Shown piece by piece: positions 24,570 through 42,090 of a DNA stretch of 64,000 nt. The stretch comes from an uncultured Dehalococcoidales bacterium (GTDB taxonomy: Bacteria > Chloroflexota > Dehalococcoidia > GIF9 > UBA5629). The position numbers and the translations under genes were made by a program. The notes beneath the pieces are model-generated. The model saw nothing but the letters and a program-made list of their open reading frames with translations, made no database searches and was not told the origin of the DNA. Within the stretch, counting starts at the first letter, position 1; the number at the start of each line of letters is the position of its first letter. The stretch is taken from the NCBI GenBank assembly GCA_964548415.1, contig CAZJQG010000001.1, positions 13,680-77,679 of the forward strand. The letters run 5' to 3'.

Positions 24570-24710
24570 ATGGGTCAGGGCGAACGGGGAAATAAGTTAA
24601 ACGCTAAAAGCTAAAGGTCAAAAGTTCAGGTTATACGTTAAATGTAAGGCACGGGTAACGGGTCAGCAAAAAGTCTCCCTTTGGAAAGGGAGATTTAGAG
24701 GGATTCTATC
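24570..24710. repeat. copy of the dispersed modular repeat, in reverse-complement orientation to 31291-31366
   Basis: The reverse complement of 24570-24650 aligns closely with 31291-31366 (cgtttaac...ccgttcgccctga modules). 24670-24700 matches the 42041-42083 'ctccctttNNaaagggagatttagagggatt' module. Confidence 0.55.
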
Positions 24711-24712
24711 CT

Positions 24713-25279
24713 TTATTTTCCCAGTACGAGTGACAGAAACTCGGCGCGCGTGGCCGATCGACTCCGGAAAGACCCTCTTGTTGCCGATGTTATAACATTA
24801 CTTCCCGGTTTCTTAATGCCGCGCATGGTCATACATAAATGCTCGGCTTGAATGACCACCGCCACTCCATCGGGCTGTAAAGCCTCGCAAATCGCATCCG
24901 CTATCTGCGAGGTCATCCTCTCCTGTATTTGAAGCCGTTTAGCGAAAATTTCTACCACTCGTGCCAGTTTGCTCACGCCGACCACTCTCCCCTCCTGATT
25001 CGGAATATAGCCCACGTGAGCCACGCCGTAGAACGGCAGCAGGTGATGCTCGCACATCGAGTAAAACGGGATATCTCTAAGTATCACCATTTCACGATGT
25101 CCCACTTCAAAACCAACGGTCAGTTCGGCTTTGGCATCCATATCCAGGCCGGCAAAAAGCTCCTTATACATATCGGCCACGCGCTTGGGTGTATCCCGCA
25201 GGCCCTCCTTTTCCGGTTCCTCGCCAATGGCTTTGATAATGGAACGTACCGCTTTTTGAATTTCTGCTTCGTCTACCAC
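24713..25279 (-). CDS. folE: GTP cyclohydrolase I
   Basis: CEHHLLPF and GxxHxGYIP motifs. Confidence 0.9.
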
Positions 25280-25306
25280 TGAAGTCTCCTCTCTGGACGA
25301 CCTCGC

Positions 25307-25909
25307 CTATCGCCTTCCGTAAGTTTCGCGGTCAAGTAATCTCTCTGACTCTTTCTTTGTAGTTATGTAAAGTTCTGCGCCCAGATAAAGAGCCGGATTC
25401 AGCTGGCTCAGGTCCAGCGTGCCTTTGGCCGTAAATAAATCATCGCTGAAGTGCACGGCGACTATTTCACCCACCATCCAAGCATGATCGCCGTAAACTT
25501 TAGAATCCACAAGTTTACACTCATAAGCGGCGTAGGCATCTTTAAGTACGGGGGCACTTGTTTTAAACGGTTTCTCTTCAATCATATTGAACCGGCTGAA
25601 CTTATCAATCTGGCTGCCTCCACTGCCTCCTACCGAAGCAATAAGGTCGGCGGACTCGTACGGTACAAAGTTAATACCAAACTCCCCGGATTGCACAATT
25701 AGGTTGTATGTAAATCTCTTAGGCGCCACTGACACGCCGTATAGTGGAGGTTTGAAGGATATTGGACTGTGCCAGGCAGCCGCCATGGCATTCTTCTTGC
25801 CGCCGGCGTTTACCGTAAGTATAGCTACTACCCTGGGATAATGCTGATAGAATTCACCAACTTCGCCTTTAACTAATTTCGCCACTGGTCTCCCCCTATT
25901 TTGCGGCAA
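25307..25909 (-). CDS. flavin reductase-like FMN-binding protein
   Basis: Split-barrel flavin reductase pattern (VAILTVNAGGKKNAMAAAWHSP). Confidence 0.7.
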   Translation of the reverse strand: MPQNRGRPVAKLVKGEVGEFYQHYPRVVAILTVNAGGKKNAMAAAWHSPISFKPPLYGVSVAPKRFTYNLIVQSGEFGINFVPYESADLIASVGGSGGSQIDKFSRFNMIEEKPFKTSAPVLKDAYAAYECKLVDSKVYGDHAWMVGEIVAVHFSDDLFTAKGTLDLSQLNPALYLGAELYITTKKESERLLDRETYGRR

Positions 25910-25915
25910 CTGGAA

Positions 25916-26983
25916 TTAATGCCAGCCCAGTGCTCTCCCAACCGCTTTTATATCAGCTGGCAATTCCGGGAATGGCTCGGCAAACTTGGCCGGCAAACTG
26001 GGGTCTTTCAGACCGCTGCCGGTGATAATACATACCACCTTTTTCCCGGAAAGGTTAAGTCCCTTAGAAGTCATTTTGATAAGACCGGCTACCGATGCTG
26101 CCGACGCCGGTTCGCCGAAGACGCCTTCTTTTCTGGCCAGCAGCTTGTAAGCAGCCACAATCTCATCGTCGGTTACGGAATCGATTATTCCTCCCGATTC
26201 ATCCCGGGCCGCTACTGCGCTCTGCCAGCTGGCAGGATTGCCGATACGAATGGCTGTGGCCAGAGTTTTCGGCTTGTCGACTACCTTTCCTCTGACAATT
26301 GGCGCGGCTCCGGCAGCCTGAAAGCCCATCATTTTCGGAGTCTGCCCGGCTTTGCCGGAACTGTTATATTCCAGGAAACCTTTCCAGTAGGCAGTGATAT
26401 TGCCGGCGTTGCCCACCGGAATAAAAAAGTAGTCCGGAGCGTTGCCCAGAGCATCTACAATCTCAAAAGCGGCCGTCTTTTGGCCCTGAATCCGGTTTGG
26501 ATTGACCGAATTGACCAGAGTCACCGGATGTTTTTCAGCCAGGCTGCGTACTATCTGCAGCGCCTGGTCGAAGTTTCCCTGAATGGCAATAATCCTGGCG
26601 CCGTAGGCTATGGCCTGTGCCATCTTACCCAGCGCTATCTTGCCCTTCGGGACCATTACGACTACATCCAGGCCGAATCTGGCACCATAAGCGGCCGCTG
26701 AAGCGCTGGTATTTCCCGTAGAAGCGCAGATAACGCTGCGACTGCCCTCTTCGACGGCTTTGGCTATGGCCACGACCATACCCCGGTCCTTGAACGAACC
26801 GGTTGGATTACAGCCTTCCAGCTTAAAATATAGCTCCCCGCAGCCGAGTTCCTTTTCTAAGAAAAGCGACCTCAACAGCGGGGTACTGCCCTCGCCCAGA
26901 GTTATCATGGGCGTGGCTGCTGTAACCGGCAGAAAATCGCGGTATCGGAATAAAACGCCGCGTTCCATATTATTCGGCCTCAA
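25916..26983 (-). CDS. thrC: threonine synthase
   Basis: PLP lysine motif [16 protein letters not shown]. Overlaps hom by 14 nt. Confidence 0.9.
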
Positions 26984-28271
26984 CCCTGACGAAATTGCTG
27001 ATCTCTTTGACCACGCCCAGCTTCTGCGTCTCTTTGAGCGCCTTCTGTACTGCCTGTTCCTCGGCCGGATGGGTCATTATTACGATTTCCGCCAGCCGAG
27101 TTGAGGTGTCCGTCTCCTTCTGAATCACTGACGATATGCTGATGGCATGGTCGCCTAATATCTTAGATATCTGTGCCAGCACACCCGGCTGGTCATTAAC
27201 GCTCATCCTCATATAGTAGCGGGTCTTTATACCATCCATAGGAATAACCTTGCGGTGGGTGGCAAAAGGCAGCCGCGGAACGGTAGGCTTACCGCTGTTT
27301 ATATCCTGAGCGATTTTGATTATGTCCGAGACCACGGCGCTGGAAGTTGCTCTTGCCCCGGCGCCCTGTCCGTAAAAAATAACCGGACCCACCAGGTCGC
27401 CCTCTACCAGTATGGCATTGAAAACACCGTCTACTTTAGCCAGAAGCGAGTCCTCCGATATAAATACCGGGTGTACGCGGGCTTCTATGGAATCATCGGT
27501 CCGCTTGGCGATTGCCAGTAGCTTTATAGCATAGCCCAGCTCGCGGGCATAACGGAAATCACGTGCTTTCAACCGTGAGATACCCTCATGAAACACGTTT
27601 TCCGGCTTTACCTCGGTACCGAAAGCTATAGTAGTTAGTATAGCCAGCTTATAAGCTGCGTCGATGCCCTCCACGTCATTGGTGGGGTCGGCTTCGGCAT
27701 AGCCCAATTTCTGTGCGTTCTTCAAAGCTACCGAGAAGTCCAGCCCTTCTTTGGCCATCCTGGTTAGAATATAGTTAGTGGTGCCGTTAACGATGGCGTA
27801 GATGGCTGAGACGTCGTTGGCTATCAAGTCTTCCTGAAACGGGGTGATCAGTGGAATGCCTCCGCCCACACTGGCCTCATATCGTATAACGACATGATTA
27901 TCGCGGGCTGCGGTCAGCAGTTCCGCCCAGTGCTTCGACATTACCTCTTTATTAGCGGTGACCACATGCTTGCCGCGGGTCAGCGCCTCTTTCATGAACT
28001 CGAAAGCGGGATGTTCACCGCCCATCAGCTCTACAACTATGTCTATGCCAGGTTCCTGCACCAGGTCTTCAACTCTGGTGGTGAAAATAGCGCGGTCGAG
28101 CCCCGAAGCTCCGTGCTTCGATACGTCTTTTTCCAGGACCTTCTTGAGCACCAGCGCGCTGCCCGCTTCCCTGGCCAGAGTATCCGGTTTTTCGAGAAGC
28201 ACCTTGACCACACCGGTCCCGATTACCCCGATGCCCATAAGCCCTATATTGATGCTTTTTCTGCCTGCCAT
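26970..28271 (-). CDS. hom: homoserine dehydrogenase with C-terminal ACT domain
   Basis: N-terminal [12 protein letters not shown] motif, catalytic region and ACT domain. Confidence 0.9.
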
Positions 28272-28277
28272 TTCAAT

Positions 28278-29561
28278 TTATCCCCTGCTTTTAACGACCA
28301 GGTCTATAGCCCAGCTTTTTTGCTGATCGGTCATTACCGTATTCACAACATCAGTGTTCATTTTCTCCATAAGCCAGTTTTGAAAAAGCCCGCTGATTAA
28401 TGTCTGCCGGGTATTGTTATCCAGCGTTTTATTATCATCCCTGTCTATCACCTTGACCACCCAATAACCACCGATAGTTTTTACGCTGCTATCGGCAGCC
28501 GGTTCACTTACGTCTCCGACTCCGAGTGGCATAGCCAGCCCAAGGACAGTTCTGTTGGAGATCGTAGCTTCTCCAGTCCAACCTAATTCCCCGGCAAGAC
28601 TGGCGCTATCATAATCTTGCGAATAGCTCTTAACCAGTCCGGCAAAATCCTCTCCGGCGAGTATCTTTTCTCTAATAACATCGGCATCATGCCGGCTGCC
28701 GGTTAGAATACCCCGCACGTAGTTGCCCTTTGTTGGGTCGGTTTCGGTCACCTGCACTACCCAGTAACCGACAGACTTGCTGACCGTGCCATCGAACGTG
28801 GGCTGACTGACTTCTCCGGCCTGCAATGTAAAGGGGATATCCTTTAACGCTGAGTTACCCAGACTACCCAGCAGTAGATAGGCGAAGTCCTTGGGCAGCC
28901 AGCCGAGATTCCCTCCCGCAGCTTTAGTCAGTGGCTCCAGGTCGTATTCGTCAACAAGAGCCGTAAAATTATCTCCCGCAGCCGCTTTAGCTCTGGCTTT
29001 ATCGGCTATGTCCTGGCTTTCTACGAATAACGCCTGGGCGTTAACCTGTTCTACGCTGGCAGGTATTTGCTTGTCGAAATGGTTTTGGATCAGCTTACTC
29101 GCCACTATTTGCGCCTCAATGGCGTCACGGTTTGGCTGATTATCGGTCCATCCATTGGACTCAAGCGCTGTGTCTATCTCGTCTTTAGTGGCGCTGATAC
29201 CCAGCTCCGGTGCATACTTAACCAGTGCCTGGTTAGACCGAATAAAATTTATAGTCTGGTCTGCCGCACTGGAAACCTGGCTACTATCCGTACCGGTGGT
29301 GGTCATCTTGGCGTATGCACTTAGAGATTTCACATAATAATCCATATTATAGGTGACGCCGTTTATGGTAACCGCAGTCTGGTGATAGGGTTTAATTTGC
29401 TCAGTCCAGAATGCCCATCCCAAAAAACCAATCAGCGCCGCCAGAAATACAGCGCCCGCTATATAAATGATATGCTGAATTCGCTCCTGGCGCCTGTGCC
29501 TGGATAACTGCCTTCTGGTAGGCACATGCTTGACTTCGATACTATCGCGTTTTTTAGCCAA
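28278..29561 (-). CDS. membrane-anchored peptidyl-prolyl cis-trans isomerase (SurA/PrsA-like, parvulin domains)
   Basis: N-terminal TM helix and two parvulin-like segments (GGNLGWLPKD..., ELGWTGEATI...). Confidence 0.65.
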   Translation of the reverse strand: MAKKRDSIEVKHVPTRRQLSRHRRQERIQHIIYIAGAVFLAALIGFLGWAFWTEQIKPYHQTAVTINGVTYNMDYYVKSLSAYAKMTTTGTDSSQVSSAADQTINFIRSNQALVKYAPELGISATKDEIDTALESNGWTDNQPNRDAIEAQIVASKLIQNHFDKQIPASVEQVNAQALFVESQDIADKARAKAAAGDNFTALVDEYDLEPLTKAAGGNLGWLPKDFAYLLLGSLGNSALKDIPFTLQAGEVSQPTFDGTVSKSVGYWVVQVTETDPTKGNYVRGILTGSRHDADVIREKILAGEDFAGLVKSYSQDYDSASLAGELGWTGEATISNRTVLGLAMPLGVGDVSEPAADSSVKTIGGYWVVKVIDRDDNKTLDNNTRQTLISGLFQNWLMEKMNTDVVNTVMTDQQKSWAIDLVVKSRG

Positions 29562-29584
29562 CTTAGCTTCTCCTAATTAAAATC

Positions 29585-29645
29585 CCTTTCTAACAAATTT
29601 CCCCCTTTCAGAAGGGGGATCGAAGGGGAAATCTCCCGTATATCC
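29585..29645. repeat. 'cccccttt...aaggggga' hairpin repeat module
   Basis: ccccctttcagaaggggg hairpin plus ggggaaatctccc. The same module type occurs at 34775-34860 and 41985-42085. Confidence 0.45.
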
Positions 29646-29711
29646 TAGCCAATTTGCCAGATTGTTTCAAATATCGACTTATGATACCATAATGACTGAG
29701 CCAAAGCCACG

Positions 29712-29788
29712 CGGGGTGTAGCGCAGCCTGGTAGCGCACCTGAATGGGGTTCAGGTGGTCGTCGGTTCAAATCCGACCACCCCGACCA
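29712..29788 (+). tRNA. tRNA-Pro (anticodon GGG), CCA encoded
   Basis: Manual cloverleaf: acceptor CGGGGUG/CACCCCG. D stem GCGC. Anticodon stem CCUGA/UCAGG. Loop AUGGGGU. T arm GUCGG-UUCAAAU-CCGAC. Confidence 0.85.
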
Positions 29789-29874
29789 TTTATTCCCGGT
29801 GACATGTCCTGTAACACTTCTCCGTAATTTTCGTATATTATGTTAGTCAACCGGATAAAGGGAGGTAGGTAGAT

Positions 29875-31206
29875 ATGAAATACAGTGCCCCGGTATCGAT
29901 AATTCTGGTTGCCGTCCTTCTTATAGGCGGCATGTCCTGCGTGGTGCCTCCGACACCGCCCTCTCCACCGCAGGGACAGGAATTGCAATCTGACAAACAA
30001 AGAATCACTTCGCCTGTAGCCAGCCAGGTCGACCTGGCAACCCTGGTAGACGGCAACAACGACTTCGCCTTCGAGGCTTATCAGACAATTAAGGGCGACG
30101 GCAACGTGTTCTTTTCACCCTACAGCATTTCCATCGCGCTGGCTATGACCTATGCCGGCGCCAGAAACAGCACCGAACAGCAGATGGCTGATACACTTCA
30201 CTTCACCCTGCCGCAGGACCGGCTGCATCCCGTATTCAATAGCCTCGATTTGGAACTAGCCCAGCGCGGCCAGGGCGCTAAAGGTAAGGACGATAAAGGA
30301 TTCAGGCTGAACATCGTTAACGCGCTCTGGGCTGAGAAAGACTTCACCTTTTTACAGACCTTCCTGGATACGCTGGCACAGAACTACGGCGCCGGCATCC
30401 GGCTGCTTGATTTTAAGAACGCCCCCGAGCCTGCACGCCTGACCATAAACGACTGGGTCAGCGAACAGACGGAAGGCAAGATCAAGGACTTGATTCCACA
30501 GGGCGCTATCAATGCTCTGACCCGGCTTGTTCTGACCAACGCCATCTATTTCAATGCTGCCTGGCAGAACGCCTTCTCCAAGAACAACACCAGCGACGGC
30601 ACCTTCCATTTACGGAATTCCGGCGAGGTTACGGTACCCATGATGCACCAGACCGACCGTTTCACTTACACCGAGGGCACGGACTATCAGGCGGTAGAGC
30701 TGCCCTATGACGGCCGCGAGCTGTCTATGGTGGTCCTGCTGCCTAAAGAGGGCCAGTTCAACGCCTTCGAAAGTTCGCTTGACGCCGGCAAAGTCGATGC
30801 CATTGTTCAAGGCCTGGAAGGCAAAGAAGTCCAGCTGACGATGCCCAGGTGGGAGTTCACTTCCAGCTTCGGTTTAAATGCAGCTCTGGGCGATTTAGGT
30901 ATGCCGGTAGCTTTTGTGCCGCCCGTTTCCAGTGGTTGCACTCCACAGCAAGCCAATTTCTCCGGCATGGACGGCACCTGCGACCTGTACATATCCGACG
31001 TAATCCATAAGGCGTTTATCTCAGTCGATGAGACGGGTACCGAGGCAGCCGCCGCCACCGCAGTCATTGTGGGAGTTACCAGTATGCCGATGCCCGAGGA
31101 AACCGTCGTCATGACCATCGACCGGCCGTTCATATTCCTGATACGTGATATCCAGACCGGCACCATCCTGTTCCTCGGCCGCGTCATGGACCCGGAAAAT
31201 AAGTAA
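29875..31206 (+). CDS. serpin-family serine protease inhibitor, lipoprotein signal
   Basis: Serpin fold signatures (NAIYFNAAW, reactive-centre hinge GTEAAAATAV, FIFLIRD). N-terminal signal with GGMSC lipobox. Confidence 0.85.
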   Translation: MKYSAPVSIILVAVLLIGGMSCVVPPTPPSPPQGQELQSDKQRITSPVASQVDLATLVDGNNDFAFEAYQTIKGDGNVFFSPYSISIALAMTYAGARNSTEQQMADTLHFTLPQDRLHPVFNSLDLELAQRGQGAKGKDDKGFRLNIVNALWAEKDFTFLQTFLDTLAQNYGAGIRLLDFKNAPEPARLTINDWVSEQTEGKIKDLIPQGAINALTRLVLTNAIYFNAAWQNAFSKNNTSDGTFHLRNSGEVTVPMMHQTDRFTYTEGTDYQAVELPYDGRELSMVVLLPKEGQFNAFESSLDAGKVDAIVQGLEGKEVQLTMPRWEFTSSFGLNAALGDLGMPVAFVPPVSSGCTPQQANFSGMDGTCDLYISDVIHKAFISVDETGTEAAAATAVIVGVTSMPMPEETVVMTIDRPFIFLIRDIQTGTILFLGRVMDPENK

Positions 31207-31209
31207 AAA

Positions 31210-31600
31210 ATCAAATATCAAAAGGCAAAAGTACAGATAAAAGTTTAAAATGGAAAATATTTCAAACTAATTTGCAGTGCAATTGTCAACTTTTAACGTT
31301 TAACCTGAACCTTTGACTTTTAGCTTTTAACGTTTAACTTATTTCTCCGTTCGCCCTGAGCTTGTAGACAGGGGCTTTACCCCCCACTGAGATTCTTCGC
31401 GGAGTTTATCCTGAGGAGATTTATTGACGAAGGGCTCAGAATGACACGTCACTGCCTCGTCATTGCGAGTCCTTCCTGCATAGGAAGGACGTGGCAATCT
31501 CATCATTCTCAGCCAACGGATCGAATTGCTGAAAACCGTTTCCGCTATGGTTCGACAAGCTCACCACGAGCGGATTCTAAGTTGGGTTTTTGGTTTAAGT
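31210..31600. repeat. composite block of dispersed repeat modules: cgtttaac/ccgttcgccctgagc, cttcgcggagtttatcc, gtccttcc...ggaaggac hairpin, ggttcgacaagctcaccacgagcgg
   Basis: Each module recurs elsewhere in the window (24570-24650, 34994-35066, 35140-35206, 41870-41935) in either orientation. Confidence 0.6.
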
Positions 31601-31797: not shown

Positions 31798-31980
31798 TAG
31801 CCTCCTCTGGTTTTATCAGCTGGTCATACAAGCAGTTTAGTCTATATAAACGCCATTGTAAAATTCAGCAAAAATATTTTTGGCTTCTGATTTTTGTATT
31901 TTGGTCTTTTGTTTCTTTCCCCATTATAAAAAAGGGGTATGAAGGGGGTTTGCTTAAACTGAATACCCGAAGGCCGAGGG

Positions 31981-32512: not shown

Positions 32513-32518
32513 AATAGA

Positions 32519-34769: not shown

Positions 34770-34774
34770 TCTCT

Positions 34775-35265
34775 TCCCCCCTTAGAATAAGTGCCTCCCA
34801 AAATCCCCCTTAGAAAAAGGGGGGGCTTTGTACCAAAAGGGGGATTAAGGGGGATTTAAATCTATCCTCTCTCCCCTGGATGGAGAGAGTTAGAGTGAGG
34901 GTGATTTTCCCGCTCATCCTGAGATTGTCGAAAGGTGAACTGGGTACCTTGGAGCATCCGCTCCAAGGTCGTGTCATCCTCAATAAACCATCTCCCCGTT
35001 CGCCCTGAGCTAGTCGAAGGGTGAATGTTAATCCGCCATGGTTCGACAAGCTCACCACGAGCGGAATATAGCATAATTTTTACATTTGTATCTGTCATTT
35101 TGATTTTTGGTTTTTTATTTTTGGTTTGCGTTGTCATCCTAAGCCCTTCGTCAGTCCTTCCGTGGAAGGATCTCCTTAGGATAAACTCCGCGAAGTATCC
35201 GTACGTGTCATCCTCGAGCGAAGCGAAGGATCTCGACAATTAAATCACGCTTTTGTCTTTTCACC
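34775..35265. repeat. 490-bp intergenic region composed almost entirely of nested hairpin repeat modules
   Basis: Contains aaggggga hairpins, ctctctcccctggatggagagag, gtcatcctgagattgtcgaaaggtgaac, ccttggagcatccgctccaagg, ccgttcgccctgagc, ggttcgacaagctcaccacgagcgg, a TTTTGG module and a gtcatcc-flanked nested insert at 35140-35206. Confidence 0.6.
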
Positions 35266-35289
35266 TCAATCTTGTTAACATTCTTGGTC

Positions 35290-36438
35290 ATGCCCAAATC
35301 CAAGGTAGCCCTGGTAAAATGCACCACCTACGATAAAAACGAAGTCCTCCACGCCGTCCGCACCGGCCTGGACCTCCTTGGCGGCGCCTCCCGCTTCATC
35401 AAACCCGGCGACAAAATCGTCCTCAAGCCCAACGTCCTCATCGGCACCAGCCCAGATAACGGCGTCACCACCCATACCGCCATATTCAGGGCCGCCGCCG
35501 GCCTCTTCAAAGAAGCCGGCGCCGTCGTCTCTTACGGCGATTCCCCCGCCTTCGGCAAATGCGAGGGCAACCTCAGAAGGGCCGGCTTAAAGAAAGTTGG
35601 TGATGAGCTGGGGCTAAAACTGGCCGATTTCGATTCCGGCAAGGAGGTCAGCCACAAAGATGCCCTGCTGGTCAAGAAGTTCGTCATTGCCAATGGCGTG
35701 CTACAGGCTGACGGCCTGGTCAGCCTGCCCCGGCTAAAAACGCACGGCTTTATGCTTTTTACCGGAGCGGTTAAAAACCAGTTCGGCTGCATCCCCGGCC
35801 TGCTCAAGAGCCAGTACCACGTTAAACTGCCTGACCCCTACGATTTCGCCGCCATGCTGGTTGACTTGAATGCGCTTATAAAGCCTCGCCTTTACATTCT
35901 GGATGGTATTACCGCCATGGAGGGCAACGGCCCCAGGAGCGGCCAGCCGAAGCAGCTAAATGTCCTGCTGTTCTCCAGCGACCCCATCGCCCTGGATGCC
36001 ACCGCCTGCCGTATTATCAACCTCGATCCCCACATAGTGCCCACCAGCCGGCCCGGTGAAAAAGCCGGACTGGGAACCTATCATGCTGAGAACATCGAGC
36101 TGTTAGGCGGAGACATTGATACCTTCTTCGACCCGAGCTTTGAGATAAAGCGGACGTCTCCTGCCCACAGTACCGGCGGCCGGTTCAGCACCTTCATCAA
36201 GAATCGTATAACCCAGCGGCCGGTTATCGATAAAACCAGGTGCGACCTCTGCGGTGTCTGCGTTAAGATGTGTCCCGTCAGCCCCAAGGCCGTTGACTGG
36301 TACAACGGTGATAAGTCTCAGCCTCCCCGGCACAACTACGACCGCTGCATCCGCTGCTACTGCTGCCAGGAAACCTGCCCCGACGGAGCCATCCACATCG
36401 AAACTCCCCTGCTAGGAAGATTGTTCGCCAAGATTTGA
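35290..36438 (+). CDS. DUF362 domain protein with C-terminal 2x[4Fe-4S] ferredoxin domain
   Basis: DUF362-type N-terminus (KVALVKCTTYD...). C-terminal CxxCxxCxxxCP twice (CDLCGVCVKMCP, CIRCYCCQETCP). Confidence 0.75.
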   Translation: MPKSKVALVKCTTYDKNEVLHAVRTGLDLLGGASRFIKPGDKIVLKPNVLIGTSPDNGVTTHTAIFRAAAGLFKEAGAVVSYGDSPAFGKCEGNLRRAGLKKVGDELGLKLADFDSGKEVSHKDALLVKKFVIANGVLQADGLVSLPRLKTHGFMLFTGAVKNQFGCIPGLLKSQYHVKLPDPYDFAAMLVDLNALIKPRLYILDGITAMEGNGPRSGQPKQLNVLLFSSDPIALDATACRIINLDPHIVPTSRPGEKAGLGTYHAENIELLGGDIDTFFDPSFEIKRTSPAHSTGGRFSTFIKNRITQRPVIDKTRCDLCGVCVKMCPVSPKAVDWYNGDKSQPPRHNYDRCIRCYCCQETCPDGAIHIETPLLGRLFAKI

Positions 36439-36601
36439 ACTATGGTAAGAATTCCCATGATTTGAGATTGTCTATATCATAATCGTAGACCGCTTTATTA
36501 TTGTATCGCCAACTGCCTGAATGTGGTATAACTATGCCACCGAGTAGGTTCTTCCCTTTAGCATTCTGCTCTTTTATATATTGGTATAGACCTTCTGTCT
36601 T

Positions 36602-36943
36602 TCATTTTGCAGTCTCAGCTGTAATTTTCAATTTAGTATCAAATAGACCAAGCTTACCGTTTTTGTACTTCACAATTGCTTTCTCGTGGGAATAATTTAG
36701 CACAGACAGGGCATGGTAGTTGTCACCCTCAATAAGTATATGGGTAATATCATCATCGCCAGAATGGATTTCATTATCCTTAATCTCTTTGAGAACTGGC
36801 AGCTCATTCTGGTAATCAAGGACTATTTTTTCCGGTTCTCTCTCTGTATCCCAGACGAGACCGTATTTCTTTCGCTTTTCTAAAGCGTTAATTCTTTTAA
36901 TTAAGTCTTCTTTTGGCCAACTTGAATAGTCAGTCTTAGGCAT
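36602..36943 (-). pseudogene. truncated N-terminal fragment of an N6-adenine/N4-cytosine DNA methyltransferase (restriction-modification remnant)
   Basis: HILIEGDNYHALSVL resembles the conserved N-terminal region of type III Mod / beta-class MTases. The ORF stops at 113 aa before any DPPY catalytic motif. No continuation in any frame. AT-rich flanks. Confidence 0.4.
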
Positions 36944-37142
36944 CGCTTATTGCCTCAAGTTCTATAATGAGTCCTTAGCTACGGCTAATTATACCTCCCT
37001 CTCGTTTCGTCAACAATATGTAACATTTTGAATGCTCTATTGCGTTCCGAATAAACAATTATATAAACAAATTATGGCTATTGGCGCCCTTCTATGCTAT
37101 CTTATTTCTTAGGGAGACCTTAATTGTCACAGGAGGTGAGAC

Positions 37143-37910
37143 ATGGCAAAATCGTTCTGGAAGGGTGTTATCAGCTTCGGACTGGTGGCCATACCGGTCA
37201 AGATGTACGTGGCCACCGAAACCAGGCCGGTGAGCTTTCATCTGCTGCATAAGAAGTGCCTGACACGGCCGAAACAGGTGCTTCACTGCCATGTAGACAA
37301 CGAGTACTTCAGTATAAAAGATACGGTGCGCGGCTACGAGGTGTCTAAAGACCAGTACGTCGTCCTCGACGAGAGTGATTTCGAGAAGGTACCTATTAAA
37401 TCCTCTCACGCTATCGATATTCAGTGTTTTATTGACGCTAAAGAAATCGACCCGGTCTACTACTACGGCGGCCATTATATCGAGCCGGAGGAGCTGGGGG
37501 TGAAGCCGTTTCAACTGCTGCGAGAGGCACTGGAGAAGACAGGCAAGGTGGGCATCGCCAAGGTGGCCTTCCAGCACCGGGAGCACCTGTGCTGTCTGAG
37601 GCCGCTGGAGGATATACTGGCGCTGCAGACTATACATTTCCAGAGCGAGATATTGCCACATGATGAGATTGAAGTTCCGGAGGCGAAGACAACGGCGGCG
37701 GAGATGGATATGGCGGTGTCATTGATTAAGGCGATGGTGAAGTCCTTTAAGCCGGAGGATTATCATGATGAGTACCAGGAGGCTTTGAAGAAGGTGGTGG
37801 AAGCAAAGATTAAGGGGCAGAAGTTCGTGGCGCCTTCGGTGGCCAAGGTGGAGATGATGGATTTGATGGCGGCATTGAGAGCAAGTGTGGAAGCGACTAA
37901 AGTCAAATAA
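37143..37910 (+). CDS. ku: Ku protein (non-homologous end joining)
   Basis: MAKSFWKGVISFGLVAIPVKMY... is the canonical bacterial Ku N-terminus. RBS GGAGGTG. Confidence 0.9.
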   Translation: MAKSFWKGVISFGLVAIPVKMYVATETRPVSFHLLHKKCLTRPKQVLHCHVDNEYFSIKDTVRGYEVSKDQYVVLDESDFEKVPIKSSHAIDIQCFIDAKEIDPVYYYGGHYIEPEELGVKPFQLLREALEKTGKVGIAKVAFQHREHLCCLRPLEDILALQTIHFQSEILPHDEIEVPEAKTTAAEMDMAVSLIKAMVKSFKPEDYHDEYQEALKKVVEAKIKGQKFVAPSVAKVEMMDLMAALRASVEATKVK

Positions 37911-38054
37911 AAAACCAAAACCCAAAACCCAAAAATACAAAAGCCAAAAATTCAGATAATAAAGTAAAAATTAGACGAGGTCAGGATTGGCGGAACCACA
38001 ACGATGTACGGCACCTATTTTTTACTTTTGGTTTGTATCTTTTCATTTTGGTCT
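37911..38054. repeat. AAAACC / TTTTGG repeat modules filling the convergent gap between ku and the DUF72 gene
   Basis: aaaaccaaaacccaaaacccaaaaatacaaaagccaaaaa, followed in the opposite sense by ttttacttttggtttgtatcttttcattttggtcttt. Confidence 0.45.
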
Positions 38055-38954
38055 TTAATCTTTGATTTTCGTTGCTTCTAGCAACGACTGCATCTGGGTG
38101 ACGTTGCGGATGGGAAAGTCAAGGTGCTTGTTTTTGAAGATGACGTGGATCTCGGCGGTAACGGCCAGGTGACGGATGCGCGGCACCCACTCCATCAGCT
38201 CCTCTTCGGTGTAAAGATAGTTGAACCTTTCATCGGCGGGTATCCCCTTCTTTTCCCAGGTATCGGCGTTCCGGCCGTGAAACCGGATAATCGCCAGGTC
38301 AGAAGTGGCCTCCGCTACCGGCGGCACGCTCGACCTGAAGCCCTGCGGCTCGTCGACGCAGACCAGCGCGATTTTCCGCTGTCTCAGAAACTCCAGCGTC
38401 GCGTCTTTATGCTGAGCCAGCCATGAGCCCGTGCGGAACTCCACGGCCACATGACAGTGCTTTATCCGCCGGCAGCAGTCCTCTATATACTGGTAGTTGT
38501 CCGGCTCGGGATGAAACCACGACGGGAACTGGAAGAGCACGGCGCCCAACTTGCTGGCGTCATGAAAGCGGTTGACTATCAGGTCGAATACCGCCCACAG
38601 CTCGTCAATTGCCTCCGCAGGCAGATGGTGCGCGTAAATATTGCTCTTCGCCTGAATCCGGTCGTTATACCTGTCGCGAATGGATTTGGGCAGCGATTCG
38701 GGCGATGTGGGATGCCCGGTGAGCAGGCTGAAAGCCCTGACATTGAAAACGAAGCCAGCGGCGGCGTTTTCCAGCCACAGTTCTACGTTGTGCGCGGTGG
38801 GGAAAAAGTGAAAGCTGGAATCTATCTCGGCCACCGAGAACCTCGAAGAGTAATACTTGAGCCTGTCCGCGGCCGACTTTACTTCCGGCGGGTAGAAGCT
38901 CTTCTCCAGCTCGGGCGTCGACCAGGTGGAAATGCCAAACCGAATTCGTCCCAT
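38055..38954 (-). CDS. DUF72 (UPF0759) family protein
   Basis: MGRIRFGISTWSTPELEKSFYP... is a typical DUF72 start, with conservation throughout. Confidence 0.8.
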   Translation of the reverse strand: MGRIRFGISTWSTPELEKSFYPPEVKSAADRLKYYSSRFSVAEIDSSFHFFPTAHNVELWLENAAAGFVFNVRAFSLLTGHPTSPESLPKSIRDRYNDRIQAKSNIYAHHLPAEAIDELWAVFDLIVNRFHDASKLGAVLFQFPSWFHPEPDNYQYIEDCCRRIKHCHVAVEFRTGSWLAQHKDATLEFLRQRKIALVCVDEPQGFRSSVPPVAEATSDLAIIRFHGRNADTWEKKGIPADERFNYLYTEEELMEWVPRIRHLAVTAEIHVIFKNKHLDFPIRNVTQMQSLLEATKIKD

Positions 38955-39001
38955 TACTCGGCACCGTAGACAGTAGTAAATATCTATTATAACATGTAGA
39001 T

Positions 39002-41683
39002 ATGAGCCCCAAACTGAAGGAATACGGCGAGAAGCGCGATTTTAAGCTGACACCCGAGCCGGAGGCAAAGATCCCAGAAAGGCAGGGGCCGCTGATATTC
39101 GTCGTCCAGAAACACCGCGCCCGGGTGCTGCACTACGATTTGAGGCTGGAAGTCGACGGTGTGCTGAAGTCATGGTCGGTGCCCAAGGGACCGTCGCTCG
39201 ACCCGCTGACGAAGCGGCTGGCGGTGATGGTGGAAGACCACCCAATCGACTACGCCGGCTTCGAGGGCACGATTCCCAAGGGAGAGTACGGTGCCGGCGA
39301 GGTCATCGTCTGGGACAACGGCACCTACTCACCGGATGAAGGCGGCAAGCTGCTGTTTAACGACCGTTCGGCCGCCGAAGAGGAGATGAGGCAGGGGCTG
39401 GCCAAAGGCAAGCTGTCGTTTAGGCTCCGGGGTCACAAACTGAAAGGTTCTTGGACGCTGGTGAAGACCCGCCAGGCAGCAAACAGCTGGCTGCTGATGA
39501 AGCACAGGGACGAGTTCGCCCGAGCGGATAAGGATATACTGGAAGAGGACCGCTCGGTGCTGTCGGGCCGGACCACGGAAGAGGTCAAGGCTTCGGAGGC
39601 GGCCGAGGCGCCCCCGCCAGCCTTAAACCCGGGAGATATGGAGGGCGCCAAAAAGGCGCGTTTTCCATCCGCTATCAAGCCGATGCTGGCGCGGCTGGCC
39701 GCTGGGCCGTTCTCCAGATCGGGCTGGATATTCGAGCCCAAGCTCGACGGTTACAGAACGCTGGCTTACATCCGTAACGGACAGGTGCGACTATTGTCAC
39801 GGCGCGGCATAGACGTGACCGAACATTACACGGCGCTGGTGCCCGAGCTTGAGCGTCAGCCGGTTTCGGAAATGGTACTGGATGGAGAAATCATCGCCCT
39901 GGACGAAAAGGGCAAGCAGTGCTTTCAGTGCCTGCAGAACTACCTGCGGTCGGTGCAGCGGATAAAGACGGCGGGCGGCGAAGCGGCGGCGCTGATTTAC
40001 TACGTCTTCGATATACTTTACCTGGACGGCTACGACCTGCGCGGCGTCGACCTGCGCCATAGAAAAGAGCTGCTGGGCAATATATTCAGGCCGTCACAAG
40101 AGGTAAGGCTGGTCGACCACTTCGAAACCGAAGGCGAGCGCGTTTACCAGGCGGCGGTGGAGAACGGGCTGGAAGGAGTCATGGCGAAGCAGAGCGACAG
40201 CCGTTATGAATCGGGCGAGAGGTCTGGCAGCTGGCTGAAGATGAAGTCGGCGCTGTCCGACGAGTTCGTCATCGGCGGCTACACCACGGGTCAGGGCAGT
40301 CGGGCGCATTCCTTCGGCGCGCTACTGCTCGGCTACTATGATGACAAAGGCAAACTGAAGTTCGCCGGGCACGTGGGCACCGGTCTCGACGAGCGGTCGC
40401 TTGGCGACCTGAAGAAGAAGCTGGACGAGCTACGGATTGACCGCTGCCCGTTTACCGAGGTACCGGAGACAAATACGCCTGCCGTTTGGGTGCGTCCGAA
40501 GCTGGTGGCCGAGGTCAAGTTCTCGGAATGGACGCAGGATGGGAGGTTGAGGATTCCGGTGTTCATGAGGCTGCGCGAAGATAAGGCGCCATCCGAGGTT
40601 CACAGGAGCCAGACTGTTACCGCTGCTTCTGCCCCGGACATGACACATAACTCACCGAACCTGGTAGAGCAGCTGGAAAAGTCCGGCGATAGCGTATCGG
40701 TGCAAATTGAGGGAAACCATATTAGCTTGACGCATATGGACAAAATCCTATGGCCTGAGAGTAAAGGCCACGCGGCGTTGACTAAGCGGCATTTTCTGGC
40801 ATATCTAGCCGCTGTCTCATCGTATTTACTGCCGCATTTGAAGGACCGGCCGCTGACTTTGAGCCGCTACCCCGACGGCATCGGGGGCGAGCACTTCTGG
40901 CAGAAGCACTGGAACAGTCCCCTGCCTGACTTCGTGCAGCGAGTCAATATCACACAGGAGGGAGACAGCGTCCAGGAATACCTGTTGTGCGATAATCTTG
41001 CGACTCTCATCTGGTTGGGCCAACAGGCGGACATCGAGTTTCACGCCTGGTTTTCACGGACGAATCCTACGCCTGACATGCGGGCTAAGAAGGACGTCGA
41101 TTATATATTGGACTACCCCGACTTTCTCATCTTCGACCTGGATCCGTATATATATTCCGGCAAGGAAAAAGCCGGCGACGAACCGGAGCTGAACCGGAAG
41201 GCGTTCGATAAGGTGTGCCAGGTGGCGCTGTGGATCAAGGAAGTGCTTGATAAACTTTCGTTAGTATCTTATGTCAAGTCATCGGGCAAGACGGGGCTGC
41301 ACATCTACGTCCCGATTGTGCGCAATTTGGACTACAAGGCAGTGAGGTCGTCCGCTGAAACCATCGGCCACTTCGTGCTGCGGAACCATCCTGAAGACGT
41401 CACCATGGAATGGTCGGTGGAAAAGCGCACCGGCAAGGTCTTTATCGACTTCAACCAGAACGTACGCGGCAAGACGCTGGCGGCGGCGTATTCGCCACGG
41501 CCGGCACCGGGAGGCCCGGCGTCCACGCCGCTGCACTGGCACGAACTGGGCAAGGTCTACCCTACCGATTTCACCATACTGACGCTGCCGGAGCGGCTTA
41601 AAAAGTCGGGCGATTTATGGGAGGACATACTGAAAGACAAGCGTGATGTCAGGAAAGCACTCAACCCTCCGGTCAGAAAATAG
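39002..41683 (+). CDS. ligD: multidomain ATP-dependent DNA ligase D: phosphoesterase, then ligase, then polymerase/primase
   Basis: N-terminal PE domain (FVVQKHRARVLHYDLRLE). Ligase KxDG (EPKLDGYR). C-terminal primase-polymerase domain (ISLTHMDKILWP...RYPDGIGGEHFWQKH). Confidence 0.9.
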   Translation: MSPKLKEYGEKRDFKLTPEPEAKIPERQGPLIFVVQKHRARVLHYDLRLEVDGVLKSWSVPKGPSLDPLTKRLAVMVEDHPIDYAGFEGTIPKGEYGAGEVIVWDNGTYSPDEGGKLLFNDRSAAEEEMRQGLAKGKLSFRLRGHKLKGSWTLVKTRQAANSWLLMKHRDEFARADKDILEEDRSVLSGRTTEEVKASEAAEAPPPALNPGDMEGAKKARFPSAIKPMLARLAAGPFSRSGWIFEPKLDGYRTLAYIRNGQVRLLSRRGIDVTEHYTALVPELERQPVSEMVLDGEIIALDEKGKQCFQCLQNYLRSVQRIKTAGGEAAALIYYVFDILYLDGYDLRGVDLRHRKELLGNIFRPSQEVRLVDHFETEGERVYQAAVENGLEGVMAKQSDSRYESGERSGSWLKMKSALSDEFVIGGYTTGQGSRAHSFGALLLGYYDDKGKLKFAGHVGTGLDERSLGDLKKKLDELRIDRCPFTEVPETNTPAVWVRPKLVAEVKFSEWTQDGRLRIPVFMRLREDKAPSEVHRSQTVTAASAPDMTHNSPNLVEQLEKSGDSVSVQIEGNHISLTHMDKILWPESKGHAALTKRHFLAYLAAVSSYLLPHLKDRPLTLSRYPDGIGGEHFWQKHWNSPLPDFVQRVNITQEGDSVQEYLLCDNLATLIWLGQQADIEFHAWFSRTNPTPDMRAKKDVDYILDYPDFLIFDLDPYIYSGKEKAGDEPELNRKAFDKVCQVALWIKEVLDKLSLVSYVKSSGKTGLHIYVPIVRNLDYKAVRSSAETIGHFVLRNHPEDVTMEWSVEKRTGKVFIDFNQNVRGKTLAAAYSPRPAPGGPASTPLHWHELGKVYPTDFTILTLPERLKKSGDLWEDILKDKRDVRKALNPPVRK

Positions 41684-41689
41684 GCTCGA

Positions 41690-42090
41690 CTTTTTGGCAC
41701 CATAAACCTTTCCCGTTTTATTACGTTTTATATATTAGGAGCGAGTCATCGCCCCCTTAACCAAACTGAGAGACCAGCGTCGTGACCAGCGCTGGTTTCT
41801 CCCTTTTTAATTGGTTTAAATCCCCCTTAATCCCCCAATGAAAACCAAAGACCAAAAGCCAAAAGCAAAAAAAGTTAAATGTTAAAGGCTAAAAGTCAAA
41901 GGTTCAGGTAAAACGTAAAAAGTTAGGTTATAAAGACATAGTTAAACATTTTATATTTGACGTTTAATTTTTAACTTCGGTTGAAATCCCCCTTAGTCCC
42001 CCTTTTTCTAAGGGGGAGAGTAGAGATCATGTTGAGTGAAAAGTCTCCCTTTCGTAAAGGGAGATTTAGAGGGATTTTTGAGACTAAATC
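41690..42090. repeat. repeat-packed intergenic region: AAAACC module, gttaaatgttaaaggctaaaagtcaaaggttcagg module, aaggggga and ctccctttcgtaaagggagatttagagggatt hairpins
   Basis: Modules match 24595-24700 and 31291-31335. The small ORFs predicted here (41971-42163) are repeat artefacts. Confidence 0.55.

Follow-up and report, generated by a model that had tools for sequence, protein, structure and literature searches.

The long intergenic spacers in an approximately 18-kb, repeat-rich stretch (24.4–42.3 kb) of the window, the 64,000-nt DNA from an uncultured Dehalococcoidales bacterium (Dehalococcoidia) that was analysed, are best explained, with a probability that we put at roughly 0.6, as BIME/NIME-like mosaics of several REP-type families of non-autonomous, selfish or semi-domesticated palindromic DNA. 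This reading is supported by short, tagged, extragenic palindromes that occur in both orientations as singletons, inverted doublets and tandem arrays, that are nested within one another, and whose occupancy of spacers differs between relatives.

Intergenic repeats cluster in one part of the window

Self-BLAST of the window placed all non-coding repeat pairs within 24.5–42.1 kb. The lowest E-value reported was for 24575–24642 and 31359–31292 (93%, E = 5e-22), and further pairs linked 31288–31344 with 41924–41868 (E = 1e-15), 33434–33488 with 35206–35261 (E = 5e-15) and 31541–31574 with 35032–35065 (97%, E = 3e-9). An earlier note on this DNA had described five recurring module types at eight sites; its motifs are present at all eight, far above chance by self-BLAST and shuffles, and recur in both orientations, as seen in the self-BLAST pairs and the site annotation. 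A degenerate 23-mer for the first two types has five copies in the window compared with none in 100 shuffles. The site list missed a T-run plus G hairpin at 31876–31951, and its last entry (41690–42090) takes in 41690–41800, which is no module but a terminator-like hairpin conserved in relative L285.

Modules occupy 9 of the 11 spacers longer than 100 nt inside 24.4–42.3 kb but none of 15 outside (Fisher p = 1.8e-5), a regional clustering that random transposition does not explain. The proposal that modules account for essentially all long spacers of the stretch thus holds apart from two that are module-free (36439–36601 and 36944–37142). Module coverage amounts to 55% of the nine occupied spacers and to 73–79% of the three densest.

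That these similarities are chance low-complexity matches or an assembly artefact has a next to negligible probability. The T-run and A-run pieces are indeed low in complexity, and a T-run pattern scan matched only unrelated, mostly coding-looking contexts, so that fair caution is warranted in calling the isolated T-runs a family. However, E-values reach 5e-22 with no hits in shuffles, 100% identical contigs were recovered from three separate metagenome samples, and the same families are found in relatives as well as distant genomes. The explanation is refuted as far as the U, M3 and G units are concerned. Nor are the modules confined to the window, being present also in L037, L202, L286, L287 and many other contigs.

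The modules resolve into four kinds

Rather than five types, four kinds of module were distinguished, namely U, M3, G and A/T-rich periodic runs; the first two of the earlier types are one U unit seen in opposite orientations within one inverted doublet. The earlier third type is M3, and the fourth (TTTTGG runs) adjoins it wherever both are present. The annotated features are as follows.

24574–24645, minus strand: half U unit (gtcagggcgaacgg) plus an A/T-rich periodic module, modA; reverse-complement repeat (71 nt) of 31289–31359, 92–93%; begins 5 nt past the stop codon of a 43-aa ORF
24673–24705, plus strand: G3 hairpin with duplicated 3' arm (gtCTCCCTTTggaaAGGGAGAtttAGAGGGAtt); 95% repeat of 42039–42076; folds
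29598–29633, plus strand: G5 hairpin, its arm duplicated, in the divergent spacer that separates a PpiC-type gene start from tRNA-Pro; fold
31207–31345, plus strand: A-run (31207–31253) and T-rich modA (31288–31345); self-BLAST, fold
31347–31574, plus strand: U inverted doublet (left unit 31347–31369, right unit 31541–31574); motif matches, fold; inside it a G hairpin (31370–31385), a compound M3c on the minus strand (31391–31446) and M3b, CGTCATTGCGAG..GGCAATCTC, with an inner hairpin (31458–31501)
31578–31599, plus strand: short T-run closing the serpin/TM2 mosaic and entering the TM2 ORF 3' end by 5 nt
31876–31951, plus strand: T-run and G hairpin (ccccattataaaaaaggggtatgaaggggg); self-BLAST
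32464–32508, plus strand: T-run ending in cgtctggggatttt; self-BLAST
33398–33482, plus strand: T-run, M3 hairpin (TGTC-ATCCTCGAGC-GAA-GCGAAGGAT-CTCG), then aaaattgaatcacgttttg; direct repeat of 35206–35281, 83–93%
34773–34908, plus strand: row of four G-type hairpins or duplicated arms (34773–34803, 34804–34825, 34835–34862, 34867–34908); self-BLAST, fold
34910–34968, plus strand: diverged U unit (ccgctcatcctgagattgtcgaaaggtgaac) and small hairpin ccttggagcatccgctccaagg; motif match, fold
34996–35065, plus strand: compact U inverted doublet, CCGTTCG-CCCT-GAGCTAGTCGA-AGGG...TTAA...GGT-TCGACAAGCTC-ACC-ACGAGCGG; DNA-fold z = -3.1
35096–35255, plus strand: T-run, compound M3c (35132–35199), M3 (35206–35235), then acaattaaatcacgcttttg; self-BLAST, fold
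37909–38072, plus strand: A-run and T-run forming a long A/T-rich inverted repeat in the convergent Ku/DUF72 spacer; z = -1.9
41815–41980, plus strand: G5 duplicated arm (reverse complement), A-run with modA (reverse complement), T-rich arm; self-BLAST
41983–42076, plus strand: G-unit inverted doublet (tail-hairpin 41983–42027, hairpin-tail 42043–42076); DNA-fold z = -4.3

The U unit, a 35-nt hairpin tagged with CGAACGG, has a stem of 3–5 bp that co-varies and an 11-nt loop that is invariant (TCGACAAGCTC). It was found in at least 120 genome stretches and spans at least six phyla (Pseudomonadota, Chloroflexota, Acidobacteriota, Elusimicrobia, Dadabacteria and Campylobacterota). Among 140 distinct units, 89.7% of stem cells are paired compared with 66.9% in shuffles, and the covariation score is 0.547 compared with 0.149, with none of 500 shuffles scoring as high and slid controls at or below 0.14. 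G.T and A.C mismatches are about equally frequent in the stems, giving no sign of an RNA strand preference. The compact doublet, with TTAA at its centre, shows 80% identity over 71 nt to Moraxella osloensis plasmid spacers.

The M3 unit carries a TGTC tag, and its stem of 9 positions closes on a GNA triloop flanked by tandem G.A pairs. At least 120 stretches of viral contigs contain it. T occupies position -1 in 88% of copies, and the Y/R stem position is paired in 139 of 140. The T-run and M3 feature at 33398–33482 abuts the -35 box of a promoter identified by promoter scan for the M28 peptidase gene (TTGACA-17-TAATAT, 33503–33531), and the array at 35096–35255, whose M3c carries an inner hairpin at 35154–35174, lies upstream of the DUF362 gene; the compound M3c form also occurs in the unrelated contigs L307 and L349.

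G units are C/G-run hairpins in which the 3' arm is duplicated; they were found in 51 viral-contig stretches, and 47 of 57 distinct copies have the complementary arm in place. Read on the minus strand, 24673–24705 is a stem plus CTTTTT with a terminator-like consensus, 20 nt past the folE stop. The row at 34773–34908 has reverse-complement matches to 41815–41836 and 41984–42017.

The A/T-rich periodic runs seem to be lineage-specific. Directly after the serpin stop, the two halves of 31207–31345 fold together as a long A/T-rich hairpin, and the T-run of 37909–38072 reaches into the DUF72 ORF 3' end.

The proposed hairpin formation was borne out for the mosaics and for the U and G units (DNA-fold z = -4.65, -4.57, -4.3 and -3.1, compared with -0.65 to +1.2 for module-free spacers) but not for four T-run-bearing pieces tested (z >= 0). 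Units also sit within other units, in the loop or in the spacer at the centre, which gives palindromes nested in the pattern A-run[G[U..U]G]T-run. Compared to the compact doublet, the U doublet at 31347–31574 holds some 170 nt of other modules between its two units; the centre of the G doublet at 41983–42076 is free of nested modules.

Spacer content turns over between relatives

Copies of the U, M3 and G families are found far beyond the source lineage, with a patchy distribution: 0.66 Mb of essentially unselected metagenomic loci held one U and three M3 cores. Presence or absence was compared in syntenic relatives, where the same spacers are empty or filled with different module sets, and spacer content therefore turns over. 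The TM2/serpin spacer measures 388 nt here but 13 and 20 nt in L285 and L283, respectively, the DUF362/M28 spacer 502 nt here but 42 nt in L285, and L283 and L285 contain no modules in 42 kb. In L286 and L287 these sites are occupied by other sets of modules, segments having been replaced between the two relatives and the window. The element at 29598–29633 is shared in place by L280 and L281, and other sequence stands there in L283 and L285. No single clean insertion event was found in the relatives compared and, since these are ~15% or more diverged, element ends are deduced rather than observed.

These comparisons bear on an alternative in which the hairpins serve primarily as functional cis-acting signals in RNA or DNA (such as intrinsic terminators, 3' hairpins that stabilise mRNA or sites bound by a conserved host protein), kept by selection and repeated because many genes need the same signal. 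Such an explanation accommodates the co-varying stems and the loop that is invariant across phyla, a combination that would also fit a functional protein-binding site, as well as the several copies at gene 3' ends, the CTTTTT after G3 hairpins on the minus strand, including the one after folE, and the long inverted repeat in the convergent Ku/DUF72 spacer. We nevertheless consider it unlikely, given that units lie in either orientation, also in divergent promoter spacers (29598–29633 and 33398–33482), that many are nested and stacked per spacer, that they are entirely missing from syntenic relatives in which the genes are the same, that most have no T-tract after the stem, and that no Rfam match or RNA strand preference was seen. 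The suggestion of a structured small RNA family is likewise not supported: no Rfam match was obtained even at E up to 5, units take either orientation relative to flanking genes and occur within divergent promoter regions, and close relatives with the same genes do without them.

Composites and the search for a mobiliser

A composite of about 200 nt (G reverse complement, U doublet, G), its ends formed by inverted G hairpins, is collinear at the unrelated loci L037 and L286, raising the possibility that the mobile unit is a MITE-like composite of ~200–250 nt, mobilised by a DDE transposase whose gene lies elsewhere, with long imperfect TIRs (A/T run plus G hairpin with tail) around a U doublet centre and with the small modules as its fragments. 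The collinearity extends to A-run, G(reverse complement), U doublet and G(/T-run) between L037 and the serpin/TM2 spacer of L286; the TTAA centre of the compact U doublet would agree, and 41983–42076 resembles two ends without a core. Like the MITEs Correia, Nezha and RUP (200–400 nt), the composites have an overall inverted-repeat architecture, are intergenic and differ in occupancy between lineages. However, neither target-site duplications nor fixed termini were seen, nor TIRs that match an IS, module order varies among the window sites, and U, M3 and G behave as independent units, each occurring alone and separately distributed in other contigs and phyla. No transposase or recombinase was detected in the region or among the scanned, otherwise unannotated ORFs of the window, and none recurs beside U units across 196 loci. 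A search for a matching IS was likewise negative. We judge a MITE-like mobile unit improbable; of the mosaic MITE/REP-type origin that had been proposed, the REP half is supported and the MITE half is not.

Comparison with known repeat systems

The M3 unit matches the published description of CGTC-type REPs, a superfamily with dRS3 of Neisseria and RPE-4/-6 of Rickettsia among its members (Di Nocera et al. 2013, PMC3733652), the comparison being with the description in words. As far as that description goes, the two share an unpaired tag (TGTC being an accepted variant of CGTC), a 9-position stem opening with complementary A-T and T-A pairs, a very short loop and a short tail that is unpaired; both occur as singletons and as head-to-head doublets, are found in many phyla and have no associated or dedicated transposase. 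M3 differs in its two tandem G.A mismatches in the stem, its loop of 3 nt compared with 4–5, its tail (CTC compared with CCA) and, in the source lineage, in lying next to a T-rich run and to a TAATCGAATCNCG-like segment and in being often repeated in tandem. That study places CGTC repeats in five phyla, Chloroflexi not among them, and describes large clusters of them in Neisseria (PMC3733652).

Like the REPs and REPINs of the REPIN-RAYT systems of Pseudomonas and Enterobacteria, the units are short extragenic palindromes with an unpaired conserved tag, form spacer-separated inverted doublets that fold into one long hairpin, and include heterodimers whose arms have different stems. Unlike them, the units have no GTAG tag, no RAYT gene flanked by units was found among the window ORFs or the 196 loci, and U combines an invariant loop with a variable stem, the reverse of classical RAYT-type REPs. 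Published abstracts describe REPIN-RAYT systems as being passed on mostly vertically within lineages, whereas Chloroflexota and Gammaproteobacteria share a U doublet at 80% identity.

The mosaics resemble E. coli BIMEs in being intergenic and in alternating palindromic units with other short conserved motifs in variable order, but consist of entirely different and more numerous sequence families, with extensive palindrome nesting. BIMEs bind IHF and gyrase. NIMEs, with 50–150 nt intergenic repeat segments bounded by CGTC-type inverted repeats, are similar to the arrays in layout; no sequence homology was demonstrated, nor was a link to phage integration or a recombinase seen. In NIMEs, dRS3 (CGTC-type) flanks exchangeable segments, and it serves as attachment site for IS110/Piv-type recombinases or filamentous phages. 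The arrays might by analogy be recombination or integration target fields, as the fit of M3 to the superfamily that includes dRS3, the mosaic architecture, the segment replacement between the window, L286 and L287 and a weak 37-nt match of a G unit to Neisseria gonorrhoeae DNA (E = 0.08) would allow. We hold this to be quite improbable, because no integrase or IS110 gene was found within the stretch or close to it, prophage or cassette ORFs are absent from between the repeats, and the Neisseria match is not significant.

A proposed model for the spread and probable co-option of the units

Under the preferred reading as mosaics of REP-type families, a trans-acting enzyme or a replication template-switch would recognise the folded single-stranded hairpin and generate copies, preferentially at the apex or centre of an existing palindrome, and the arrays could then grow or shrink by slippage and recombination. 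Loop and tag may be held constant by horizontal transfer, by strong constraint from the recognising factor or by both, with the stems drifting by compensatory change. Some copies have probably been co-opted: one G hairpin with its T-run is found 20 nt past folE, at the position expected of a terminator, and a T-run with M3 is situated just upstream of a -35 box.

Repeat families in the 24.4–42.3-kb block

Self-BLAST of the 64-kb window returned significant non-coding pairs only at 24.5–42.1 kb (E to 5e-22), and a repeat search of the window recovered the same families as direct and inverted copies, in agreement with an earlier note that had proposed dispersed repeats in both orientations here. 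A degenerate 23-mer for two of the modules listed in that note matched five times in the window and never in 100 shuffles. An assembly accident can be discounted, since window positions 23742–41206 match contigs of three separate JGI metagenome samples at 100% identity. Our inventory holds 37 module copies across 9 spacers, all of them spacer-located or clipping ORF ends, and every copy within the 64 kb is confined to one 18-kb block. Inside 24.4–42.3 kb, modules occur in 9 of the 11 spacers longer than 100 nt, compared with 0/15 such spacers elsewhere in the window (Fisher p = 1.8e-5), and they cover 55% of the nine occupied spacers (73–79% of the three densest). The proposal that modules fill essentially all long spacers of this stretch thus held for nine of them but not for the module-free spacers 36439–36601 and 36944–37142, which flank a 113-aa ORF. 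The five proposed modules reduce to four kinds of element, namely three hairpin families (U, M3 and G) and A/T-rich periodic runs, and the eight sites originally listed had missed 31876–31951 and had wrongly included 41690–41800, which is not a repeat module but a separate terminator-like hairpin conserved in a relative. The latter (41768–41801, + strand) has a 13-bp stem followed by CCTTTTT and lies ∼85 nt past the LigD stop; its sequence is conserved in opposite orientation in the syntenic contig L285 (∼1290–1340), and it looks like an ordinary intrinsic terminator outside the repeat families.

The genes of the block are ordinary: folE, flavin reductase, thrC, hom, PpiC-type rotamase, tRNA-Pro, serpin, TM2, zf-CDGSH, trypsin-like protease, M28 peptidase, DUF362, Ku, DUF72 and LigD. 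The homoserine dehydrogenase (Hom) is 86% identical to NCBI proteins labelled 'Dehalococcoidia bacterium', which places the source among uncultured Dehalococcoidia (Chloroflexota). Ku and a four-domain LigD form an NHEJ repair pair (37143–41683) with the DUF72 gene between them on the opposite strand, and the Ku/DUF72 spacer is filled by a long A-run/T-run inverted repeat. The 113-aa ORF (36602–36943, − strand) is without a Pfam match and lies mid-block between two module-free, A/T-rich spacers (36439–37142); its counterpart next to DUF362 was not called in L285.

Principal repeat units of the block (window coordinates; strand where assigned)
24574–24587, half U copy
31347–31574, split U doublet, interrupted by ∼170 nt of other modules
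31391–31446 (−), compound M3 relative
31458–31501, compound M3 relative
33434–33463, full M3 copy
34910–34940, diverged U copy
34996–35065, compact U inverted doublet, centre TTAA, z = −3.1
35132–35199, compound M3 relative
35206–35235, full M3 copy, a direct repeat of the other at a distance of 1772 nt
41983–42076, G inverted doublet, z = −4.3

The U unit

What had been described as the core of one module (ccgttcgccctgagc...) and a second module (ggttcgacaagctcaccacgagcgg) proved to be a single 35-nt unit, U, in opposite orientations: 5'-(CCGTTC-AT)-NNT-TCGACAAGCTC-ANN-(AC)GAACGG-3'. It is a hairpin with an 11-nt loop, TCGACAAGCTC, a stem of 3–5 bp and, flanking the stem on one side, a conserved CGAACGG tag. 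Among 140 distinct units the loop is invariant and the stem variable, and the stem co-varies: 89.7% of cells are paired, compared with 66.9% in shuffles, and the covariation score is 0.547 against 0.149 after shuffling, a value reached in 0/500 shuffles (slid controls, ≤0.14). The tag is kept at 58–70% per position in units that the search pattern had not selected.

GTDB species genomes contain exact matches to a U 23-mer in at least 120 stretches, from at least six phyla overall, the matches listed including Sphingomonadales, Burkholderiales, Nitrosomonadales, Methylococcales, Moraxella, Dehalococcoidia and other Chloroflexota, Acidobacteriota, Elusimicrobia, Dadabacteria and Sulfuricurvum. 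Three complete Dehalococcoidia chromosomes (OZ252238.1, OZ253588.1 and OZ244803.1) are among them. In these genomes' loci U occurs as singletons and as head-to-head or tail-to-tail doublets, and doublets are many. The 71-nt doublet of the window is 80% identical to an unannotated narL/histidine-kinase spacer on Moraxella osloensis plasmids, and its left unit (31–33 nt) is 93–97% identical to Sphingobium and Comamonas plasmid DNA. An empty site that would reveal the ends of the doublet and a target duplication was sought among the Moraxella plasmids, where 7/7 matching plasmids carry the element.

The U 23-mer also matches 76 IMG/VR stretches. Phages were rejected as vectors: the U doublet had no match among 50,697 deposited phage genomes, which match only an M3b-type 31-mer, in uncultured gut phage contigs. 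Many of the U-carrying 'viral' contigs (L010–L079) are related high-G+C syntenic clusters of 13–28 loci each that, judged by how their ORFs cluster and by their base composition, resemble GTA-like or prophage-like Sphingomonadales regions in which a conserved spacer contains a U doublet. On this reading, some of the viral-contig matches counted stem from host loci and not from phages.

M3, G and the A/T-rich runs

M3 is a 30-nt unit, TGTC-ATCCT(C)GAGC-GAA-GCGAAGGAT-CTCG. On paper it forms a 9-position stem in which two tandem G.A pairs close on a GCGAAGC mini-hairpin, a motif of unusual stability that the folding parameters used do not model. An M3 25-mer matches at least 120 IMG/VR stretches. 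The consensus is AT-YCTGAGC / GNA / GCGAAGR-AT, with a 3-nt loop and a (C)TC tail, and the sole variable stem position (Y-R) pairs in 139 of 140 copies. Position −1 is T in 88% of 135 distinct copies, which gives TGTC, and TC follows; the window copies read ttgtc and gtgtc. An inverted partner lies within 120 nt of 14/140 copies. The compound forms of the window recur in unrelated contigs. M3b-type units (CGTCATCGCGAG..hairpin.. and GTCTTTGCGAG..GTGGCAATCCC) are also present at 222–345 of contig L200, which carries a protease 78% identical to the trypsin-like protease of the block; their position there is non-orthologous, indicating that dispersal of the family extends to that relative.

In G units (33–45 nt), which are hairpins of C/G runs, the 3' arm is duplicated, as in gtCTCCCTTTggaaAGGGAGAtttAGAGGGAtt. 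The duplicated-arm 19-mer matches 51 IMG/VR stretches, the complementary arm is in place in 47/57 distinct copies, and AGTC often precedes the unit. Chance similarity or artefact is excluded as an explanation for U, M3 and G. The fourth kind of element comprises (TTTTGGN)n runs and a 57-nt piece, modA, which form inverted A-run/T-run pairs or lie immediately 5' of M3. The T-run was rejected as a widespread family, as a viral scan gave 21 matches, every one in an unrelated context; we regard T-runs as low-complexity runs that are specific to the lineage and adjoin M3.

The modules had been called hairpin-forming. When folded as single-stranded DNA (z relative to shuffles), two large mosaics (z = −4.65 and −4.57), the G doublet (−4.3) and the compact U doublet (−3.1) bore this out, but four T-run-carrying pieces did not (z ≥ 0). 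Module-free spacers gave z values from −0.65 to +1.2.

Mosaic order and occupancy of orthologous spacers

Elements lie within the centres of other elements, so that palindromes enclose one another, as in A-run[G[U..U]G]T-run, and module order varies among sites of the window as well as among the window and two syntenic relatives, L286 and L287. These and two further relatives, L283 and L285, were obtained via Hom and M28 peptidase homologues plus exact-contig matching; a metagenome scan with the trypsin-like protease returned mostly generic relatives at 35–56% identity and was useful only for L200 (78%) and L202, a more distant contig with the same kinds of mosaic.

In L283 and L285 (Hom 85–86% identity) the order serpin-TM2-CDGSH-M28(-DUF362) is retained, with zero modules across 42 kb. 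The TM2/serpin spacer measures 20 nt in L283 and 13 nt in L285 versus 388 nt in the window, and the DUF362/M28 spacer 42 nt in L285 versus 502 nt. L286 and L287 (M28 peptidase 84–85% identity) have modules at the same sites with other content and order: the L286 serpin/TM2 spacer reads A-run hairpin, G, a U doublet with a different 70-nt insert at its centre, G and T-run, and its M28 gene is flanked by tandem (T-run + M3 + TAATCGAATCTCG) copies. By comparison, essentially unselected metagenomic loci (0.66 Mb) contained one U and three M3 cores. Occupancy is therefore patchy and lineage-specific, with turnover, which is the behaviour of mobile or rapidly expanding and contracting repeats and not of fixed regulatory sites. 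A hairpin 5' of the PpiC-type gene was considered as a regulatory hairpin that keeps its position and undergoes compensatory changes, an idea rejected on alignment, as the L283 and L285 sequences differ there.

The trypsin-like protease gene (32519–33292, − strand), between the M28 peptidase and zf-CDGSH genes, is missing from that position in L283, L285 and L286, so that the block varies in its genes as well as in its repeats; upstream of the L200 copy lies a different gene.

Could the repeats be true MITEs? A composite of ∼200 nt, made up of G in reverse complement, a U doublet and G, is present in collinear form in the L286 serpin/TM2 spacer and at an unrelated locus on L037, and such recurrence keeps this explanation alive; the L037 contig comes from a sample in which the window's population is also present. 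MITEs have terminal inverted repeats, target-site duplications and a parent IS, whereas the composites here are palindromic overall, and no target-site duplication, fixed termini or IS was found at the compared spacers, in the window or near U units.

Terminators, promoters and RNA

A G3 hairpin (24693–24674, − strand) followed by CTTTTT, 20 nt past the folE stop, has the features of an intrinsic terminator. The terminator consensus also occurs at 42064–42044 (−) and 29619–29600 (−), neither with a same-strand gene end just upstream, and most units lack a T-tract or have the wrong orientation for a terminator. A T-run + M3 block ends ∼20 nt 5' of the −35 box of an M28 promoter found by promoter scan (TTGACA-17-TAATAT); L285 has the matching promoter and no module, indicating that the promoter does not belong to the element. 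Some copies, such as the G hairpin after folE and the T-run + M3 block by the M28 promoter, may thus have been co-opted.

That the repeats are purely functional RNAs or terminator signals, the former being an option raised in the earlier note, is weakened by their presence in both orientations, their stacking, the copies in divergent promoter spacers and the syntenic relatives without copies. Nor was there an Rfam match: with Rfam 15 only tRNA-Pro, tRNA-Asp and PyrR scored above gathering thresholds in the window, and at E up to 5 nothing credible appeared in 24.3–42.4 kb.

Other features of the window

The PyrR-binding RNA leader (RF00515, 61 bits, above the gathering score) lies at 11812–11941 (+), just 5' of a run of plus-strand ORFs taken to be a pyrimidine-biosynthesis operon; a 1066-aa ORF at 14840–18040 looks like carB. 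A low-G+C islet (5543–8081) contains a DUF3800 protein (6012–6830) and a 128-aa ORF without a Pfam match (7234–7620), set apart by unusually long spacers (403 and 461 nt) in which the repeat modules are absent; the islet may be a small insert of mobile or defence type. Three diverged repeat sets are located in coding DNA:
19963–22628, adjacent 419-aa ORFs, ∼75% DNA identity over 212 nt (20846–21056 versus 22267–22477)
46878–50742, adjacent 620-aa and 590-aa ORFs, ∼70% over 1.7 kb
54488–57203, a 379-nt segment (74%) common to ORFs 54488–55159 and 55281–57203
Within ORF 54488–55159 (−), a G/T-rich imperfect tandem repeat (54959–55095, period 12–15 nt, 7 copies) probably encodes a low-complexity linker.

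Relation to known repeat systems

In size, U (35 nt), M3 (30 nt) and G (33–45 nt) in the 64-kb window match REP/REPIN elements, which are short (20–40 nt) extragenic repeated imperfect palindromes. U and G share the tag-stem-loop layout of REPs, often with a GTC-like tag, and form REPIN-like inverted doublets as long hairpins (U at 34996–35065 and 31347–31574, G at 41983–42076). In place of the unpaired GTAG at the 5' stem foot of GTAG-type REPs, U carries CCGTTCG/CGAACGG, M3 carries TGTC and G often has (A)GTC. As in BIME/NIME mosaics, the window has intergenic clusters of palindromic units in both orientations, combined with other conserved motifs in variable order. BIMEs bind IHF and gyrase, and dRS3 repeats serve as phage attachment sites. 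As to sequence likeness with the E. coli PU/REP or Neisseria dRS3/RS units, the one match seen, over 37 nt between a G unit and N. gonorrhoeae, is not significant (E = 0.08). Literature searches with repeat-derived peptide and DNA strings gave nothing relevant and no description of U or G by sequence, and a keyword search for Dehalococcoidia with palindromic repeats gave nothing specific.

M3 resembles the CGTC-tagged REP superfamily, which has been reported from five phyla and lacks a dedicated transposase (PMC3733652). As described there, these REPs have an unpaired CGTC (or TGTC/CCTC) tag at one end, which M3 matches with TGTC; an 8–9 bp stem that starts with A-T and T-A pairs, a 4–5 nt loop and a 3-nt CCA tail, compared with nine stem positions (two of them G.A), a 3-nt loop and a (C)TC tail in M3; and predominantly head-to-head dimers, compared with a nearby inverted partner for 14 of 140 M3 copies. 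M3 fits this description, with a different loop length and tail, and is a candidate member of the superfamily (PMC3733652).

No gene for a RAYT (Y1 HUH transposase) was found in the window, and none recurs near U in 196 loci of ∼8 kb each. When 3566 ORFs within 2.5 kb of U were clustered, no recurrent cluster was transposase-like as judged by eye, and neither were the ORFs between paired U units in L016 and L143. The recurrent ORF clusters near U come from related high-G+C IMG/VR 'viral' contigs, which we suspect to be GTA-like Sphingomonad loci, so that the clusters reflect sampling. Neither a transposase (window; 196 U loci) nor a target-site duplication was found. A NIME-like recombination field would be attractive by analogy, but no recombinase is present in or near the stretch.

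DISCUSSION

The units form hairpins with compensating stem substitutions, they occur as doublets, arrays and nested sets, their orthologous sites have gained, lost and refilled copies, and the families reach distant phyla. We consider it probable (about 0.6) that they are REP-type tagged palindromes in BIME/NIME-like mosaics, and the mosaic REP-type reading of the earlier note was in this respect essentially right. A trans-acting factor may recognise the folded strand and insert at palindrome centres; arrays would then expand by slippage or recombination, and loop and tag could have been fixed through horizontal transfer or constraint.

A more speculative proposal, which we regard as doubtful, is that U, and perhaps M3 and G, are ligands of one widely transferred recognition system that inserts units at the apices of existing palindromes, candidate recognisers being a new hairpin-specific transposase/nuclease or a conserved host replication/repair factor. 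Such a system would jointly explain the invariant 11-nt loop with its co-varying stem, the shared xGTC-like tag, the nesting and an identity of 80% between units of Chloroflexota and Gammaproteobacteria. If so, the units would constitute a pan-bacterial class of mobile hairpin DNA.

When the loci are translated in six frames, the units are read as peptides such as FDKLRANG, LSLSKP and RQAQHER within long spurious ORFs, and a covariance-model library of the units would help to clean MAG annotation. U also gives a handle on the question raised for CGTC-type REPs of what mobilises or maintains tagged palindromes without a dedicated transposase: a loop and tag fixed across at least six phyla above a co-varying stem imply a specific recognising factor, which is now searchable. 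Most work on REP-type repeats has concerned Proteobacteria. In the uncultured Dehalococcoidia lineage of the window, at least four hairpin families that interact have inflated spacers up to ∼30-fold; none of these families is present in sister lineages that share the gene order, and the filled and empty lineages offer a natural before-and-after comparison for studies of invasion.
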